Below, piece by piece: positions 44,347 to 51,929 of a stretch of 53,531 nucleotides of DNA. The notes under the pieces are model-generated. The model saw only the letters and a list, made by a program, of their open reading frames with translations, ran no database searches and was not told where the DNA came from. Source of the stretch: Candidatus Saccharimonadales bacterium (GTDB taxonomy: Bacteria; Patescibacteriota; Saccharimonadia; Saccharimonadales; JACDFO01). The stretch spans positions 1-53,531 of the forward strand of contig JBBSLJ010000006.1 of NCBI GenBank assembly GCA_038255465.1, given 5' to 3'. Within the stretch, counting starts at the first letter, position 1. Every line of letters starts with the position of its first letter. The position numbers and the translations under genes were made by a program.

Positions 44347-45594
44347 ATGTCTCGATTATTATCCGAATTGGTAGGTGCTGACGAACCGCTGTTTTCTATC
44401 TCAATTCAGCAGCTTGAACGCGCCAGCGGTGAGCAGAGTACTGACGTTCGCCTAACCGCAGAAATACTGACAAAAGTGCATCAAAAAATGCGCGAACTTG
44501 GTCTTGACCCAAAATTTACCAATGGCCGCGAGCTGTATCATGCGCTGATGGGACTGGTAAAACTACACGATTCGTTTCTAGCCGAGAAACTACATGTTAA
44601 AGATCACGGTGATGTGCAGGAAGTACTTAAGGCAATTGCCGACCAAGCGAAAAATTTGCCAGTTCCACAGACCGTCTATGCACTCAAGTCGAGTACCGTT
44701 AAGAAAATGCTAAAAAACGTACCGCCTAAAAAAGTTATGAAAGCTCTGCATTATCGCTCAATCGAGTCAATGCTTAAGCGTGAATCTATGAGTGAATTGC
44801 TCGGTGGTGCACGCTTTTTAGAAGAGGCCGAATGGCACGCTAAGCTAGCTGCACAATACACAAAACTTACCCCGGCAGATTTTGAAAACAGAAAAATTGA
44901 AGTCATTTATTTTGATCCAAAAAAATGGCACGGTGCGGCTGATGAATTTGTACGGCAGACACGGCACACCGTTAGTCACCTCAAAGAAACCGGCACGATT
45001 TTGCTTGCGCCGCTTCCAATCGACAAGTTGCCTGGCATTACTATCACCACGCTGCCTTTCGTGTTGCATTATATGAATGAGGTCAGAACATATTCAGCTT
45101 ATTTTAAATCGCAGCAGATTATGCCTGACTTCGGCAGCATAGTCGCCAGGACTATTACAGAAGACCCGCCAGTTCATGCAGAGATTGCCGGACATGGTAT
45201 TCACTGGCGTGTGATACAGCGGCATTATGGACGCGCCGCTGACAGCTTTAGCGAAGTTTTTGAGCCACACGTAACATTTGATGATATGGCGTGGCACTCG
45301 GCTGAACGAGTTTTATACAGACTCGAGCCAGCATTGTACTTTTGGTACGATATGGATTTTGTTGGCATGACAGCCGACGGACGGCCAGTCAGTTTTAATC
45401 TGCTTGATATGGCTATTTCATGCGTCAATAACTTGTCTTATGGCTACCAGAGCATGCAGCACATGCAAACGGCACTTAAGCACGAATTATTTACGCGCTA
45501 TCTTGCATCTCCGTCGCTGGAACACCAAGTTCTTAAACAGCTTGCTTATGTAGATGACCCTAATCTTGCTGAATTTGTTTTGGAGGATTCATAA
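44347..45594 (+). CDS. Hypothetical protein
   Basis: 415-aa ORF in the operon direction, with no motif I recognise. Confidence 0.75.
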   Translation: MSRLLSELVGADEPLFSISIQQLERASGEQSTDVRLTAEILTKVHQKMRELGLDPKFTNGRELYHALMGLVKLHDSFLAEKLHVKDHGDVQEVLKAIADQAKNLPVPQTVYALKSSTVKKMLKNVPPKKVMKALHYRSIESMLKRESMSELLGGARFLEEAEWHAKLAAQYTKLTPADFENRKIEVIYFDPKKWHGAADEFVRQTRHTVSHLKETGTILLAPLPIDKLPGITITTLPFVLHYMNEVRTYSAYFKSQQIMPDFGSIVARTITEDPPVHAEIAGHGIHWRVIQRHYGRAADSFSEVFEPHVTFDDMAWHSAERVLYRLEPALYFWYDMDFVGMTADGRPVSFNLLDMAISCVNNLSYGYQSMQHMQTALKHELFTRYLASPSLEHQVLKQLAYVDDPNLAEFVLEDS

Positions 45595-45595
45595 A

Positions 45596-46162
45596 ATGTA
45601 TCAAATCTGCGTATCTGGTGCTGCTAAAGGTAAGAGCGTCGAGGAAGGACGTAAGCTTGCTGGGGACGTCGGGGCAGCTATTGCTAAGGCTGGTCATAGT
45701 CTGCTCACGGGCGCCACTGTTGGGCTGCCTAACTACGCTGCAGAAGGTTATAAAAAGGCGGGCGGACAAATGAGCGTTGGTATTAGTCCAGCCGCCAGTA
45801 AGATTGAACACGTCGTTAAGTATCGTTTACCAACTGTTGCCTACGACACGATTCTTTTTACGGGTCTGCATTATATCGGGCGTGATGCACTGCTTATTAC
45901 ATCGAGTGACGCGGTTATTAGTATCGGAGGGCGACTAGGCACGCTACATGAGTTTACGATTGCCATGGAGACGAACACTCCCATTGGATTCCTGCAGGGT
46001 GCCGGCGGTGTCAGCTCAGAAATATCAGACATTTTACATGCAGCTGGAAGCGAACACGATAAAGACGTGGTCTTTAGCGAAGATCCGATGTGGTTGGTGA
46101 CCAAGCTCACCGAAATGCTGGACATAGACTATAAAAAGTATAAATACTTATATAACATTTAG
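45596..46162 (+). CDS. LOG/SLOG family protein
   Basis: ICVSGAA, LLTGATVG, GISP, GGRLGTLHE. GGAGG SD. Confidence 0.85.
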   Translation: MYQICVSGAAKGKSVEEGRKLAGDVGAAIAKAGHSLLTGATVGLPNYAAEGYKKAGGQMSVGISPAASKIEHVVKYRLPTVAYDTILFTGLHYIGRDALLITSSDAVISIGGRLGTLHEFTIAMETNTPIGFLQGAGGVSSEISDILHAAGSEHDKDVVFSEDPMWLVTKLTEMLDIDYKKYKYLYNI

Positions 46163-46247: not shown

Positions 46248-48212
46248 ATGGCTAATTTTGTACTGAAATCTGACTATAAGCCGACGGGCGACCAACCGTC
46301 GGCGATTGCCAAACTGACTGAAGGTATTGAAAAAAATGTCAAAGAGCAGGTTCTGCTTGGGGTTACAGGGTCTGGCAAAACATTTACCATGGCTAACGTT
46401 ATTCAGAATATTCAGAAACCGACGCTGATACTTAGCCACAACAAGACGTTAGCGGCCCAGCTTTATGGTGAGTTTAAGAAGTTCTTCCCAGACAACGCAG
46501 TTCATTATTTTGTAAGTTATTTCGACTACTACCAACCCGAAGCCTATATCCCACGCAGCGATACCTATATTGAGAAAGATTCGCAAATAAATGAGGAAAT
46601 AGACCGGCTTAGGCACGCTGCGACCGACTCGTTGCTCAGCCGACGTGACGTAATTATTGTTGCAAGTGTCAGCTGTATCTACGGCATTGGTTCTGTAGAG
46701 GATTATAACGGCTTGGCGGTACATGTTAAGCGCGGTGAGCGACGGGTGCGGGATAAGCTTTTACGTCATCTTACCGACATTCAATATACACGAAATGATG
46801 TAGACTTTCACCGCGGAACATTCAGAGTTCGTGGTGATGTGGTAGATATTTTTCCAGCCAGTGAAGAAGTTGCTTACCGCGTGGAAATGTTCGGAGATGA
46901 AATTGAGCGCATCACAAAAGTAGACCCATTAACAGGTGAAATAGTAGCCACGCTAGACGAGCTTAAGGTATTCCCAAGCAGTCATTACGTTACGCCGCAA
47001 GATAAGCTCAAAGTTGCCCTTGGCCAAATTGAGCACGAGCTCGAAGAGCGACTACATTTTTTTAAACAGAATGGTCAATTGCTTGAGGCGCAGCGTCTGC
47101 AACAGCGAACTAATTTCGATTTAGAAATGTTGCAGGAAACCGGCTTTGTAAAAGGTATCGAAAACTACAGTCGTTACTTAACGAATCGTGAGTCTGGTGA
47201 TCAGCCGGCAACCTTACTTGACTACTTTCCAGATGACTACATGCTGTTTGTCGATGAGTCACACATGAGTCTGCCGCAGGTTCGCGGCATGTTTAATGGT
47301 GACCGGGCACGCAAAGAAGTGCTAGTGGAGCACGGCTTTCGTCTGCCGAGTGCGCTCGATAACCGGCCCTTGACATTCACCGAGTTTGAAAAGCATGTTA
47401 ATAAAGTAGTCTATGTCAGTGCAACCCCTGCAGAATATGAGCTTAGTCGTAGCCCCGAGCCAGCTCAGCAGGTTATTCGCCCTACTGGCTTAATTGATCC
47501 TAAAATTGCCGTCCGGCCAATAGAGGGACAAATTGACGATCTTATCCATGAAATTAAACTTACTATCGCAAAGCATCAGCGCGTACTAATAACCACGTTA
47601 ACAAAACGGATGGCCGAAGATCTTACGGAGTATTTGCAAGAAATAAATATAAAAGTAACCTATTTGCACAGTGATGTTGACACATTAGATCGTACCGATA
47701 TTCTCCGTGACCTTCGGTTGGGAACGTATGACGTCGTAGTTGGTATCAACCTGCTGCGTGAAGGCCTGGATTTACCGGAAGTAAGCTTAGTCGCAATTCT
47801 TGACGCCGATAAAGAGGGGTTTTTGCGGTCCGAGCAGGCGCTTATACAGACAGTTGGGCGGGCAGCTCGACATGTTGAAGGTCGGGTTATTATGTATGCC
47901 AACAACATTACTAAAAGCATGCAAAAAACTTTTGATGAAACTGACCGCCGCCGCACTATTCAGGAGGCCTATAATAAAGAGCACAAGATAACACCAACAG
48001 GTATTTCAAAGGCAATTGAAAAGGGCATGCGACCTGATATGCCTGAAGATTCCAAACGAGTCAAATTGAATTTAAATAAAATTCCAAAAGACGAATACGC
48101 ACACTTGATCAAAGACCTATCAGGTCAGATGGATTTGGCGGCTGCCAACCTTGAATTTGAAAAAGCGGCTGAACTTCGTGACATCATAGAAGACGTCAAA
48201 AAGAAGCTATAA
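46248..48212 (+). CDS. uvrB: Excinuclease ABC subunit B
   Basis: [28 protein letters not shown]-terminal UVR domain. Confidence 0.98.
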
Positions 48213-48234
48213 GCAGGCCTGCTAGAATATAGTA

Positions 48235-49116
48235 ATGCTTAAACAAAAAAAATGGCTTACTTTAGCAGTAATTACTTTTATAGGGCTTTCTGTTTTAGCA
48301 GTCGCACTGTTACTGGTTAACCGAGCGCCAGATCCGCGTCATGAATCCAACCAAAGCCCCCCGCCTGCGGTTTCTGAGCCACAAAACACGACACAGTTCA
48401 CTGCAGAACCAGATAAAGCGCTCGAGGCCCTTTTAGCGAGTCAGGTAGTAGATAGGCCGGGTAAATATGGTATATATGTCCAAGAACTAAACGGCGACAA
48501 ACGTTTTGCGGGCTACCAGGCTAACGAAAAAATTATTGCCGCTAGTACTTTTAAATTATTTCTAATCTATGCCGTATTAGAAAAGGCTGAAAAGACAGGC
48601 TCTTTTAACCTTAGCACGCCTCTTGCGGGCGGAACTGTGTTAAGTTGCATCGAGTCGTTGTTAGTGATATCTTCTGATGCCTGCGCATTTGTTCTTGGCA
48701 AGTTAGTCGGCTGGTCAGCACTAAACTCACGATTGCACGAGGCAGGATTCACTAATACTAATATCAACAATTACACCGAAACAGGTGATACTTCTGGCGA
48801 TAAGTACACCACCGCTTACGATGAAGCTCTTCTTCTCGATCGTTTAGCCAACGGCACATTACTTAATCAAGAACATACTGAGGTAATGACAGGCTTCATG
48901 AAGCGTCAAATTCACCGTCAACGAATTGCCGGTGGTTTGCCAAAGGGAGTTGAAGTAGCCAGCAAACCGGGGTTTATTTATGAAATCGAGAATGACTCAG
49001 GAATTGTATATGGTCCAAAAAGCACCTATGTAGTGGTCCTCCTGTCAGATGGTTCTGAGCCAGCAGTTTTAGCTGAGTTATCGGCCAGTATATACAAGTA
49101 TTTGCACGGGTTATAA
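48235..49116 (+). CDS. Membrane-anchored serine hydrolase (class A beta-lactamase/PBP-like fold)
   Basis: ASTFK (SxxK), SSD, SKPG. N-terminal TM. Confidence 0.85.
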   Translation: MLKQKKWLTLAVITFIGLSVLAVALLLVNRAPDPRHESNQSPPPAVSEPQNTTQFTAEPDKALEALLASQVVDRPGKYGIYVQELNGDKRFAGYQANEKIIAASTFKLFLIYAVLEKAEKTGSFNLSTPLAGGTVLSCIESLLVISSDACAFVLGKLVGWSALNSRLHEAGFTNTNINNYTETGDTSGDKYTTAYDEALLLDRLANGTLLNQEHTEVMTGFMKRQIHRQRIAGGLPKGVEVASKPGFIYEIENDSGIVYGPKSTYVVVLLSDGSEPAVLAELSASIYKYLHGL

Positions 49117-49168
49117 CAGTATCCGTACCAGTACTGTCCTGAATCACCAAACGAATTATGCGCGTATT

Positions 49169-49369
49169 TTATTGGCCACCTTTTTGAACGTACTGTCTGA
49201 CAAATTCTTCGGCGTTAACTTCTAAAACCTCATCAATCTCATCTAGTAGGTCATCTAACTCTGCTTTTACTGCCGCGCCTTTAGCTGCGGCTTCGCCAAT
49301 ATGTTGGGCTGTATCAGTTGGCGTTTCTACTTCTGTCTCGCGTCTTGATTTGTGTATACGTTCTCCCAC
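49169..49369 (-). CDS. pup: Prokaryotic ubiquitin-like protein Pup
   Basis: C-terminus LDDLLDEIDEVLEVNAEEFVRQYVQKGGQ matches actinobacterial Pup. AAGGAG SD and TATACT upstream. Confidence 0.9.
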   Translation of the reverse strand: MGERIHKSRRETEVETPTDTAQHIGEAAAKGAAVKAELDDLLDEIDEVLEVNAEEFVRQYVQKGGQ

Positions 49370-49533
49370 GTGGTAGCTCCTTGTTATTAATGCGCATTAG
49401 TATACTAGCAGGCATAGCGTATGTAAAAACAGATAAGAAAATTGCAAATGTGAAATTCTTCACGGCGCAAACTCTTCAGTATGCGTATTATACGCTCAGA
49501 AACAGAGAGAATATATGTATAAGGAGAGCAGGT

Positions 49534-50088
49534 ATGAGAAAAATGGCAGTCATTGTCGTCGCTACTATTGCGACAGTTGGCATGTGGAATGCGCAAACCG
49601 GCGCACAACAGCAGCCGGCAGGAACGATTCCGCCCGTAGAGAAGACTACCAATGCCCGCCTTGCAGGTGAAACAATTGACGGGATTGAAGTCCCGCACGA
49701 CATTTTGACTGCGGTACAGTTATACTTTCAGGGTTTTGCTGTAACGCAGGCTCATGAAATCGAGCGTGCCGGCAAAAAAGCATATAGACTGCAGGTTGGC
49801 AGTAACAGTGTTGCAAATGATGCAGACAGTTTTTATTTAAACTTTGATGACAAGTGGAAATTTATAACCCAAGAAAAGTTTATACTGCCGCCTAAACCTA
49901 CAGTTGAAACCATCCAACCTGATCAGGATGATAAACCAGAAACGCAAACTCCAGAAAACGATAAGCCTGAAGAGGCACGCAATGACCCAAATCCCACGCT
50001 AGAAGAGCCAACCCAGGATGGCGATAATGATTTAGTCAGCAATGATGAGCCAGTTGTACGCGAACAGGATGACCGGCGTAGACGCTGA
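49534..50088 (+). CDS. Secreted PepSY-like domain protein with an acidic disordered tail
   Basis: AAGGAG SD, signal peptide, VPHDILTAV...YRLQV...LNFDDKWKF. Confidence 0.65.
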   Translation: MRKMAVIVVATIATVGMWNAQTGAQQQPAGTIPPVEKTTNARLAGETIDGIEVPHDILTAVQLYFQGFAVTQAHEIERAGKKAYRLQVGSNSVANDADSFYLNFDDKWKFITQEKFILPPKPTVETIQPDQDDKPETQTPENDKPEEARNDPNPTLEEPTQDGDNDLVSNDEPVVREQDDRRRR

Positions 50089-50217
50089 CACTACTTAGTA
50101 GTAGCGGTACAGTCAACTTACGCCTTGCAAATATAACCCTGAATTTATTTGCGCAAACTGCACATAGTAATTAGACAGTTTGTTACGGAGAAGATTTGCC
50201 CGTATAATCTTATAAAT

Positions 50218-50511
50218 ATGGCGAAGTTAACACACGATGATGTATTAAAGCTGGCTAAACTGGCGCGTTTGGAGCTTACCGAAGAGGAAGTAACCAGTTT
50301 TGCGGAAGAGATTAGCTCTATACTGAAATTTGTTGAACAACTGCATGAAGTGGACGTGAGTGATCTCGAACCCACCCTGCAAGTAAACGGGCTAACTAAC
50401 GTAACTAGATCTGATGACGTTATTGACTATGGGGCCAGTTCCGAAGACCTATTAAAAAACGCACCGGCAGTTAAAGATGACCATATAAAGGTACGAAGGA
50501 TGATAATTTGA
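50218..50511 (+). CDS. gatC: Asp/Glu-tRNA amidotransferase subunit C
   Basis: VLKLAKLARL...NVTRSD...LLKNAP. Confidence 0.93.
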   Translation: MAKLTHDDVLKLAKLARLELTEEEVTSFAEEISSILKFVEQLHEVDVSDLEPTLQVNGLTNVTRSDDVIDYGASSEDLLKNAPAVKDDHIKVRRMII

Positions 50512-51929
50512 GTATCTGGAAGCCTATCGCAGACATTGCAACTGATGTAAAGGCTGGCAATGCCACGGCAGTAGCATTAGTTGAACAATCGCTAAAACTG
50601 ATACAAGAGCAAAAAGACTTTGATGCTATCTTGGCTACAATCCCAAAGAGAGCTCGTGAGCGAGCACAGGAAATTGACAGGCGTATTGCTAATGGTGATG
50701 ACGTGGGCAGGTTAGCTGGTGTGCCATTTATTGCAAAGGATAATTTCTTAACATTCGGTTCTGAAACAACAGCAGCCAGTAATATTCTTAAGGGGTTTCA
50801 GGCTCCCTATCAGGCGACAGCTATCGAGCGGCTCGAGGCCGAAGGTGCAATTTGCGTTGCTAAAGCAAACCTTGATGCCTTTGCGCACGGCGCAAGCACC
50901 GAAAACAGCGATTTTGTTACTACCAAAAACCCACACGACAAAACTCGTGTCCCTGGTGGCTCATCTGGCGGTTCGGCTACTGCTGTAGTGCTTGATTTAG
51001 CACCATTTGCTATCGGTACAGACACGGGTGGGTCAATACGACAGCCGGCAAGTTTTGTAGGGTGTGTAGGATATAAGCCAACGTACGGGTTGGTTTCGCG
51101 AAGTGGTGTAGTTGCGATGGCAAGTAGTACTGATACGATCGGTCCGTTGACGCGTAACGTTCAGGACGCCGCTCTAGTACTTGATATTATTAGCGGTAGG
51201 GACGAACTGGACGGGACTACAATAGCCCGTGAACCCAAGCCTTATAGCGATCTCAAGCCGGAGTTACAAGGTGTCCGGGTTGGAATAATCAAGGAATACA
51301 TGGGCGAGGGTTTGAGTGATGATGTTCGGAATGCAGTTGAAGCAGCAGTAGAAAAATTAAAATCGCGAGGCATTGAGGTTGTTGAAATCAGCGTACCATC
51401 AGTACGGCTTGCACTGGCTGTGTACTACATCATCTGTCCGGCAGAGGTTAGTAGTAATTTGAGCCGTTATGACGGCCAGCGATACGGGTTTTCTGATGAA
51501 ACTGCCGTAAAGTTAGACGATGTATACTTGAAAAGCCGTGGAAAAGGTTTCGGCAAGGAAGCAAAGCGGCGAATAATGATAGGTACCTATGTTCTTAGTA
51601 GCGGCTACTACGATGCTTACTACCGTACTGCCCAGCTTGTCCGCACAAAACTTATACATGAATTTAACGAGGCTTTACATAATGTTGATTTTCTTTTGGG
51701 TCCCGTTACTCCTACAACAGCTTTTAAAATTGGCGCCAACACGAGCGATCCATTGCAGATGTATTTGGCGGATGTCATGACGGTAGCAATTAATCTCGTA
51801 GGTGTACCAGCTATCAGTCTACCTGCGGGCATGGTCAACGGGCTACCAGTTGGTCTTCAGCTAATTGCAGCACAACGGGCAGACAAAAAATTGCTTGAGT
51901 TTGCGGCTAAGGTGGAGGAAATACTATGA
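50508..51929 (+). CDS. gatA: Asp/Glu-tRNA amidotransferase subunit A
   Basis: PGGSSGGS, GTDTGGSIRQPA, KRRIMIGTYVLSSGYYDAYY. Confidence 0.97.
   Translation: MSIWKPIADIATDVKAGNATAVALVEQSLKLIQEQKDFDAILATIPKRARERAQEIDRRIANGDDVGRLAGVPFIAKDNFLTFGSETTAASNILKGFQAPYQATAIERLEAEGAICVAKANLDAFAHGASTENSDFVTTKNPHDKTRVPGGSSGGSATAVVLDLAPFAIGTDTGGSIRQPASFVGCVGYKPTYGLVSRSGVVAMASSTDTIGPLTRNVQDAALVLDIISGRDELDGTTIAREPKPYSDLKPELQGVRVGIIKEYMGEGLSDDVRNAVEAAVEKLKSRGIEVVEISVPSVRLALAVYYIICPAEVSSNLSRYDGQRYGFSDETAVKLDDVYLKSRGKGFGKEAKRRIMIGTYVLSSGYYDAYYRTAQLVRTKLIHEFNEALHNVDFLLGPVTPTTAFKIGANTSDPLQMYLADVMTVAINLVGVPAISLPAGMVNGLPVGLQLIAAQRADKKLLEFAAKVEEIL

Follow-up and report, generated by a model that had tools for sequence, protein, structure and literature searches.

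A pup gene and an unlinked PafA-like gene in a Saccharibacteria genome: a candidate pupylation module without a proteasome

Can a bacterium with a genome of little more than 1 Mb make use of the protein tag Pup without a proteasome? The question is raised by a contig of a Candidatus Saccharimonadales bacterium (assembly GCA_038255465.1, contig JBBSLJ010000006.1), the whole of which, 53,531 nucleotides, was analysed and is called the window hereafter. It carries pup, the gene of a protein tag. The attachment of this tag to proteins, pupylation, is regarded as a trait of Actinobacteria and Nitrospira that goes with the proteasome. The initial annotation had described an orphan pup in a probable Saccharibacteria genome. 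It had proposed either a host-derived Pup, kept as a mimic or decoy, or an unlinked pupylation system of the candidate phyla radiation (CPR). The analysis reported here favours the latter proposal. We consider, with a probability of roughly 0.55, that pup and an unlinked PafA-like enzyme gene form a two-gene pupylation module which is independent of a proteasome and has no Dop, Mpa/ARC or 20S.

The pup gene and its contig

Judged from its sequence, the open reading frame (ORF) of 66 amino acids (aa) is a genuine and expressed-looking pup gene of a soil member of the Saccharibacteria. The Pfam Pup family PF05639 matches it with 77.5 bits (cut-off 27, E 1.5e-21) and the NCBIfam model TIGR03687 with 69.7 bits (cut-off 41.45), which is far above chance. 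It is the only Pup copy in the genome, as found by a six-frame search (E 5.8e-21). Its C-terminus reads ...DDLLDEIDEVLEVNAEEFVRQYVQKGGQ, exactly as first quoted. Both this end and the length agree with the family signature of 50-90 residues and a C-terminal G-[EQ] in the available part of the source (Iyer 2008). As relatives share the N-terminus M-[GA]-E-R, it speaks for the GTG start; indeed, M-[GA]-E-R-[IV] is common to saccharibacterial Pups, Acidimicrobiia Pups and the ORF. The exact Pup sequence with the GTG start is absent from a large protein-cluster collection. The span first assigned to the gene, 49169-49407, includes the leader in addition to the ORF, which ends at 49369. As for the signals in front of the gene, the Shine-Dalgarno site is clear. 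The promoter-like site is weak evidence alone, because shuffles of the region give about as many (1 found vs. a mean of 1.3).

The integrity of the contig holds. The genome (G000) comprises 1.21 Mb in 104 contigs, with 95.7% completeness and 2.3% contamination; pup lies on contig C6 and the enzyme gene on contig C3. An independently built contig of 7002 nt (run X1, which may be the source sample) spans positions 46530-51500 with 0 differences. Contigs from a different soil study (X2) cover 46500-51500 only in part, and one of them, 342 nt long, covers 49153-49493, including the whole of pup and its leader, with 9 differences. The five differences listed within the gene amount, by codon arithmetic, to four synonymous third positions and one Q59E replacement. 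Four of five being synonymous, this suggests that pup is under purifying selection. Moreover, a same-genus genome (G001) matches the sequence on either side of pup at 69-74% DNA identity. The GC and tetranucleotide make-up of C6 and C3 is typical of the bin. The GC content of pup is 44.8%, compared with 45.5% for the genome, and its GC3 (GC at third codon positions) is 0.30, whereas 460 long ORFs have 0.447 +/- 0.069.

A chimeric contig, or an actinobacterial contaminant in the bin, might be suspected from the size of the bin, most relatives having 0.6-1.1 Mb, and from its estimated contamination. Given the flanks that match within the genus, the independent contig, the second study with gene and leader, and the bin-typical make-up of both contigs and of pup, such an artefact has a very small chance of being the explanation. 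The assignment to Saccharibacteria holds as well. Over 3177 nt, locus L044 of G085, which belongs to the same order, has 100% identity to a Candidatus Saccharibacteria record (L134), and the flanks of pup match the same-genus genome.

A PafA-like enzyme on another contig

The word orphan is true within the window, but genome-wide one PafA-like gene is found on C3. It is the single Pup-ligase-family gene of the genome (C3:18850-20316, 488 aa; PF03136 237-239 bits, cut-off 25). Hidden Markov models (HMMs) from every clade of the family found no second PafA/Dop homologue among the six-frame ORFs of the genome. The absence of dop, pafA, mpa/arc and prcAB from the window, reported at the start, was confirmed: the only PF03136 match lies on C3, and AAA matches lie on C12 and C2. 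The whole-genome HMM search thus recovered a ligase-like enzyme, but no Dop, Mpa or 20S. There was no match to PF00227 (20S proteasome) or PF16450 (Mpa-type OB domain) anywhere in the genome. TIGR03689 (Mpa/ARC) gave no match over its cut-off, the best being an FtsH with an M41 peptidase domain. A full pupylation system elsewhere in the genome had been named as a finding that would speak against a decoy; the genome bears this out only by half, with the ligase-like enzyme present.

The enzyme looks like a ligase by the PafA/Dop hallmarks of Table 1 of Hecht 2020 and the Dop-loop definition of Cui 2021, both taken from the available parts of these papers, although the pattern appears mixed and only mostly PafA-like. 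The GhExE motif and the catalytic region are 36 aa apart, while the actinobacterial PafA rows have a distance of 39 (14 of 14) and the Dop-type rows one of 67-120; therefore, the enzyme has no Dop-loop. Its YVDVGHHPE motif has the PafA-type V-G insertion (PafA, YLDVGSHPE; Dop, YVDH-AHPE), and its alpha-loop DHFWDTVS is like EHIWEGVS of PafA and unlike DFFEEEVG of Dop. Of the seven tabulated positions near the catalytic Asp, four resemble PafA (the V insertion, G, T, A), two resemble Dop (V, S), and H is like neither. The alpha-loop agrees with PafA in H, W and S and has D for E; one of its positions is Dop-like (L) and four are neither. The Dop model TIGR03688 scores 186.9 bits, below its equivalog cut-off of 492.3; together with the missing Dop-loop and DVGH in place of DH-A, this speaks against a Dop.

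Among solved structures, Dop (143.8 bits) and PafA (133.9 bits) are at much the same distance from the enzyme. The PafA model TIGR03686, however, gives it a higher score (224.6 bits) than the Dop model does, and phmmer agrees, with about 200 bits for Acidimicrobiia PafA compared with about 104-157 bits for Dop ORFs of full length. Its identity to actinobacterial PafA and Dop is only about 30-33% (at most 33%), and by these comparisons it is not a close relative of any of them. The best relatives in a large protein collection are 39-53% identical. The next tier reaches at most 33%, and its only named members are Dop. In a protein atlas, the clusters are auto-named Pup--protein ligase (score 0.98), a lead that is consistent with a PafA-like enzyme and is not a test of it. 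Database pipelines will already label the pup and enzyme genes.

The order was surveyed in 301 genomes including G000, Pup being counted over the Pfam cut-off unless stated otherwise. This survey across Saccharibacteria, which had been proposed as a check, found Pup in 16 of the 301 genomes (19 at E <= 0.01) and a PF03136 gene in 47. Pup and enzyme occur together in 11 genomes, vs. 2.5 expected. The enzyme is present in 11 of 16 Pup-bearing and in 36 of 285 Pup-less genomes (Fisher p 1e-6, related genomes not being independent). Pup adjoins the enzyme in G271, G133, G220, G124 and G008, and is unlinked to it in G000, G012, G161, G120 and G138. The Pup of G008 is divergent, was found only by looking beside enzymes, and is additional to the 16. 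The Pups of these 17 genomes end in GGQ (9), NGQ (1) or GGE (7). A Q-ended Pup together with a single enzyme that has no Dop-loop is found in six genomes (G000, G161, G133, G220, G008 and G124), in four of them as adjacent pairs. Two further features of Pup were seen in the survey. In G133, a Pup gene next to the enzyme is accompanied by a second, unlinked one (L043 and L053), and the Pup of G124 (L049) is 90 aa long, with two copies of the helix motif and an NGQ end.

Outside the order, both genes are rare. In a phylum-wide sample of 401 genomes, with kinship counted from family codes, the enzyme was present in G000, in 5 of 22 other genomes of the same order, in 0 of 2 of the same class and in 2 of 376 others. 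Pup was over the cut-off in G000, in 2 of 22 genomes of the same order and in 0 of 378 outside it. The two genomes from other classes, G420 and G476, have a Pup-ligase-family gene (301 and 232 bits), and no Pup match was found there.

When the enzyme, with an alignment of 19 rows, was co-folded with residues 30-66 of Pup, with one of 17 rows, the score was 0.65, vs. 0.01 for the best of three controls. Of solved complexes, 58 of 80 reached the mark used, as did 2 of 110 mismatched pairs. At least 91% of contacts are common to the runs, and the predicted local distance difference test (pLDDT) of the partner is at least 73. In the model, Pup 59-66 touches enzyme residues 26 and 28-30 (GhExE) and 69-73 (catalytic Asp region). 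The co-fold is thus supportive, as it places the predicted position of the Pup C-terminus in the enzyme active site. The proposal of an unlinked CPR pupylation system fits these results: a PafA/Dop-family gene on another contig, co-occurrence above chance, and a co-fold into the active site.

A tag ending in glutamine and a single enzyme

For the putative module, conjugation, processing of the terminal glutamine, targets and readout are what we infer. Pup would dock in the groove of the enzyme with its C-terminal two-helix region (about residues 34-66), and the terminal residue would then lie beside the GhExE nucleotide motif and the catalytic Asp69. Activation as an acyl-phosphate would prepare the terminal gamma-carboxyl for transfer to a lysine in the target protein. 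As the tag is Gln-ended and no Dop was found, the same enzyme would have to handle the amide, either by removing it first or by using it directly via a shared phosphorylated intermediate, unless some unrelated amidase does so. Handling by one enzyme is supported by the recurrence of the same Q-ended layout in six genomes. The chemistry of the enzyme family is established; Dop itself is described as using phosphate, in the same site, to act on the amide, and phosphorylated Pup was seen in Dop crystals, according to the available parts of the literature (Cui 2021; Barandun 2012 review). In the part of Iyer 2008 at hand, the possibility that a single enzyme handles the Gln end was raised in an author reply, before Dop was known. 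With no proteasome or Mpa found, the tag would presumably be non-degradative, or be read by another machine.

Comparison with known systems shows where the putative module is ordinary and where it is not. With the actinobacterial Pup-proteasome system of mycobacteria and Acidimicrobiia it shares the tag (the Pup models are passed, with the GGQ end and the helix LLDEIDxVLExNAExFV) and a ligase of the same family, with GhExE, the catalytic Asp and PafA-type loops. That system has dop-pup-prcBA, mpa and pafA, whereas here no Dop, Mpa/ARC or 20S was found. In Acidimicrobiia loci, dop and pup are followed after about 1.5 kb by pafA, whereas here pup is unlinked to the enzyme. The enzymes also differ, the one on C3 being below both equivalog cut-offs and no more than 33% identical to the actinobacterial ones. 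In its lack of a 20S proteasome and its presumably non-degradative role, the putative module resembles the pupylation of Corynebacterium glutamicum as described in the available parts of reviews (including Barandun 2012). Corynebacteria keep Dop and ARC and have a GGE tag, in contrast to GGQ with neither Dop nor an ATPase found here, and their non-degradative pupylation still depends on ARC (Barandun 2012 review, available part). The single-copy homologues of Planctomycetes, as far as described in the accessible text of Hecht 2020, are similar in that there is one enzyme per genome, outside the PafA/Dop duplication and about 30% identical to both. They partly align with the Dop-loop, an insert that the C3 enzyme does not have, this comparison being by description only.

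Several observations weigh against the module. By the textbook rule, a GGQ Pup would be inert here, because in mycobacteria it needs Dop for conjugation, and deletion of dop or pafA abolishes pupylation (Barandun 2012 review, available part). The co-fold may echo memory or likeness rather than binding of its own, because PafA-Pup and Dop-Pup complexes have been solved. The enzyme scores 224.6 bits with the PafA model TIGR03686, below the equivalog cut-off of 551.3. In a quick, unrooted tree of 91 rows with long branches (50 order-level enzymes included, one 278-aa fragment dropped), actinobacterial PafA and Dop form one clade, with 100 in the Shimodaira-Hasegawa-like approximate likelihood ratio test (SH-aLRT). 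None of the 50 order-level enzymes falls within this clade; they form many clades with long branches, and the C3 enzyme is within a well-supported clade of 11 rows. A tree of the same kind from a 43-row subset (11 own-type, 10 PafA, 10 Dop and 12 other rows of the order) gave (own type,(PafA,Dop)), with support of 99 for PafA+Dop, but in the approximately unbiased (AU) test a grouping of the own type with the PafA clade was not rejected (delta lnL 29.8, p 0.067). The distribution in the order adds to these points. As many as 36 of the 47 enzyme-bearing genomes are without Pup over the cut-off, and clearly the enzyme family can occur where no Pup is recognisable. G070, G106 and G275, the only other sampled genomes with the enzyme subtype of G000, yielded no Pup, nor did G001 of the same genus, even with a profile of the order's Pups. 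Three enzyme queries found nothing in five Pup-bearing genomes (G075, G078, G085, G222 and G243), the loci of which (L047, L041, L044, L036 and L042) are true orphan Pups; G078 is a single contig and 98% complete.

Some of these points fit a Pup that is real and conserved but stranded. It would not be conjugated for want of a deamidase and would have a non-covalent role or be on its way to loss, while the C3 enzyme would have another substrate. This reading, which we regard as unlikely, agrees with the mycobacterial rule for a GGQ tag without Dop, with the Pup-less state of the other genomes of the enzyme subtype (3 of 3) and of most enzyme-bearing genomes, and with the many divergent paralogues in the order, some without the catalytic Asp. 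It sits poorly, however, with an intact ORF that has a good Shine-Dalgarno site, differs mostly synonymously from a second strain, and keeps the GGQ end and the binding helix, beside an enzyme that keeps its catalytic motifs. The repeated finding of a Q-ended Pup with a single enzyme, four times as adjacent genes, would be hard to explain if the pair were non-functional.

Two groups of paralogues deserve mention on their own account. In a well-supported clade of Pup-ligase-family proteins of the order, the catalytic Asp is missing (for example, VYPGG or LYVQNS in place of YxD), as is NTRDEPHAD, and there is an insert after the position. It comprises L142, L144, L146-L148, L150, L151, L155 and L157 (G298, G200, G061, G091, G293, G107, G204, G194 and G138), and Pup is detectable in one of the nine genomes (G138). 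A second clade (L034, L035, L140, L141, L143, L149 and L152-L154) has an insert of 64-73 aa at the position of the Dop-loop and the motif Y-x-D-P-SGPEYATPE, and no NTRDEPHAD; Pup was found in none of its genomes.

Another point against the module is that, with 95.7% completeness and 104 contigs, the absences of components hold for the assembly and are not proven. The same figures, and the two full-length paralogues in 8 of the 47 enzyme-bearing genomes, would allow for a fuller, ordinary system, with Dop and perhaps an ATPase hidden in the unassembled part. This is decidedly unlikely. None of the 50 order-level enzymes belongs to the actinobacterial Dop clade, and none combines a Dop-loop with the DH-A motif. 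The near-complete genomes G161 (99%) and G008 (100%) show the same Q-ended Pup and single enzyme. Furthermore, PF00227 matches in only 2 of the 301 genomes of the order (G056, L160; G071, L161 and L162), neither with Pup or enzyme.

A bolder form of the two-gene module can be put forward only tentatively, as the odds are against it. One enzyme might do the work of both Dop and PafA, carrying Gln-ended Pup via the shared phosphorylated intermediate straight to the lysine isopeptide with no proteasome. It might be a living stand-in for the state before the PafA/Dop duplication, and the genes might stem from old traffic between epibiont and host. Such traffic would be indicated by their near-confinement to one order, the cultured members of which live on Actinobacteria, together with Pup flavours that mirror the actinobacterial subtypes.

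Origin, surroundings and significance

The origin of pup bears on the other half of the initial annotation. The Pup of G000 is up to 65-66% identical to Acidimicrobiia Pups and 64% to the best saccharibacterial Pup. The phylogeny that had been proposed was built against actinobacterial Pups (90 rows, 65 columns). It is poorly resolved with long branches, the saccharibacterial Pups interleave with actinobacterial Pup subtypes, and the origin is not settled by it. No Pup donor is therefore drawn, as neither the tree nor the pairwise identities separate a saccharibacterial from an actinobacterial origin. Recent transfer of pup from a high-GC actinobacterium was rejected on composition. The term host-derived, taken as a recent event, is not borne out either, in view of the native composition, the low identity of the enzyme to actinobacterial PafA and Dop, and the gene order around it. 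The order PD-(D/E)XK nuclease, enzyme and serS is common to G000, G070, G106 and G275, which belong to four families; this shared synteny indicates vertical descent, so that the enzyme is native and not recently host-derived. An old link of Pup and enzyme to Actinomycetota is nevertheless likely, to judge by sequence likeness and distribution, because in the Patescibacteria sampled both are almost confined to one order, and the Pup is as close to those of Acidimicrobiia as to other saccharibacterial ones.

Two details of these loci may be added. In G000, an ORF of 108 aa that belongs to no family lies between the enzyme gene and serS (L001:2875-3201, contig C3), and nothing corresponds to it in the three remaining syntenic loci, where ORFs of at least 50 aa were compared; in G070, serS directly follows the enzyme gene. 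Among the Pups compared, for which related loci were sought with a 7-row Pup alignment, those of three Acidobacteria/Acidobacteriota records (L059, L091 and L093) look like Acidimicrobiia Pups. L059 and L091 have the Acidimicrobiia-type dop-pup-pafA layout, and the PafA and Dop rows of L059 are basal in the PafA and Dop clades. These Acidobacteria-labelled Pups could be mislabelled bins or gene transfer.

Cultured members of the Saccharibacteria lineage live on Actinobacteria. A Pup directed at the pupylation of such a host, which would supply Dop, PafA and Mpa, was the main idea of the initial annotation, and this lifestyle is one of the points in its favour. Others are the likeness to Acidimicrobiia Pups, which extends to the N-terminus M-A/G-E-R-x-Q/H-K, the interleaving in the poorly resolved tree, the confinement of Pup to the order in the Patescibacteria sample, and the five relatives with Pup and no enzyme. 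The host's Dop would also process the GGQ end, for which no Dop was found in the genome, and the pup locus is variable, the same-genus genome G001 having a different gene upstream of gatC. Still, we regard a mimic or decoy as distinctly improbable. No signal peptide or other export feature was seen by eye in the 66-aa sequence, and no delivery route is known. The genome has a cognate-looking enzyme that the co-fold predicts to bind Pup, the two genes are strongly associated across the order and lie side by side in five genomes, and the composition of pup is fully native. The actinobacterial likeness can be explained by strong constraint on the binding helix of 30 residues. Nothing found requires a decoy, and the unlinked-system half of the initial annotation is the better supported one.

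The neighbours of pup contribute nothing to the two-gene module (Table 1). As first described, they are unrelated to it: a Beta-lactamase2-family gene on one side and, on the other, the gene of a protein with no Pfam family match, followed by gatCAB. Being flanked by unrelated genes, pup is monocistronic. The idea of GatCAB as an amidase for the Gln end was considered and dropped: this is the housekeeping tRNA amidotransferase, and its position next to pup is an unsupported coincidence. Elsewhere in the window (44347-46162), the gene of a 415-aa protein that belongs to no family overlaps by 41 nt the start of the gene of an SLOG cluster-4 protein (LDcluster4, 103 bits); the two may be a functional pair.

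Table 1 Features at and around pup in the window (the pup row was read from the sequence and the ORF list)
Feature	Position	Strand	Description
Beta-lactamase2-family gene	48235..49116	+	Convergent neighbour, one boundary, outside the system; PF13354 119.6 bits
pup	49169..49369	-	66 aa, GTG start, TAA stop 49169-49171, GGQ end; PF05639, TIGR03687
Shine-Dalgarno AAGGAG	49377..49382	-	7 nt upstream of the pup GTG; read from sequence
Sigma-70-like promoter match TTTACA-17-TATACT	49399..49427	-	10/12 positions; consensus scan
184-aa protein gene	49534..50088	+	Divergent neighbour, hydrophobic N-terminus, outside the system; other boundary, before gatCAB

UBact is a Pup-like tag of Gram-negative phyla, outside Actinobacteria. 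The tag described here resembles it as a Pup-like protein outside Actinobacteria, but differs in matching the Pup models proper. The original UBact study reportedly lists some candidate phyla. The phylum lists in the available parts of Hecht 2020 and Iyer 2008 name Actinobacteria, Nitrospirae, NC10, Armatimonadetes, Verrucomicrobia, Nitrospinae, Firmicutes, Proteobacteria and Planctomycetes, and no CPR lineage. Our literature search found no paper linking pupylation or Pup to Saccharibacteria, TM7 or Patescibacteria, the candidate phyla radiation appearing only in an unrelated phylogeny monograph; the supplements of Hecht 2020 and Iyer 2008 may list further taxa.

If true, Pup with one enzyme, in a genome of about 1 Mb, would be smaller than any pupylation system described so far. 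For biochemistry, it raises the pointed question of how a GGQ tag is used without Dop, and an enzyme pair that is easily purified would let the separation of ligase and hydrolase be asked. An inert or host-directed tag, if that were true, would also be informative, because five relatives carry Pup without the enzyme. Pup and its putative enzyme are a candidate molecular link between Saccharibacteria and Actinomycetota.

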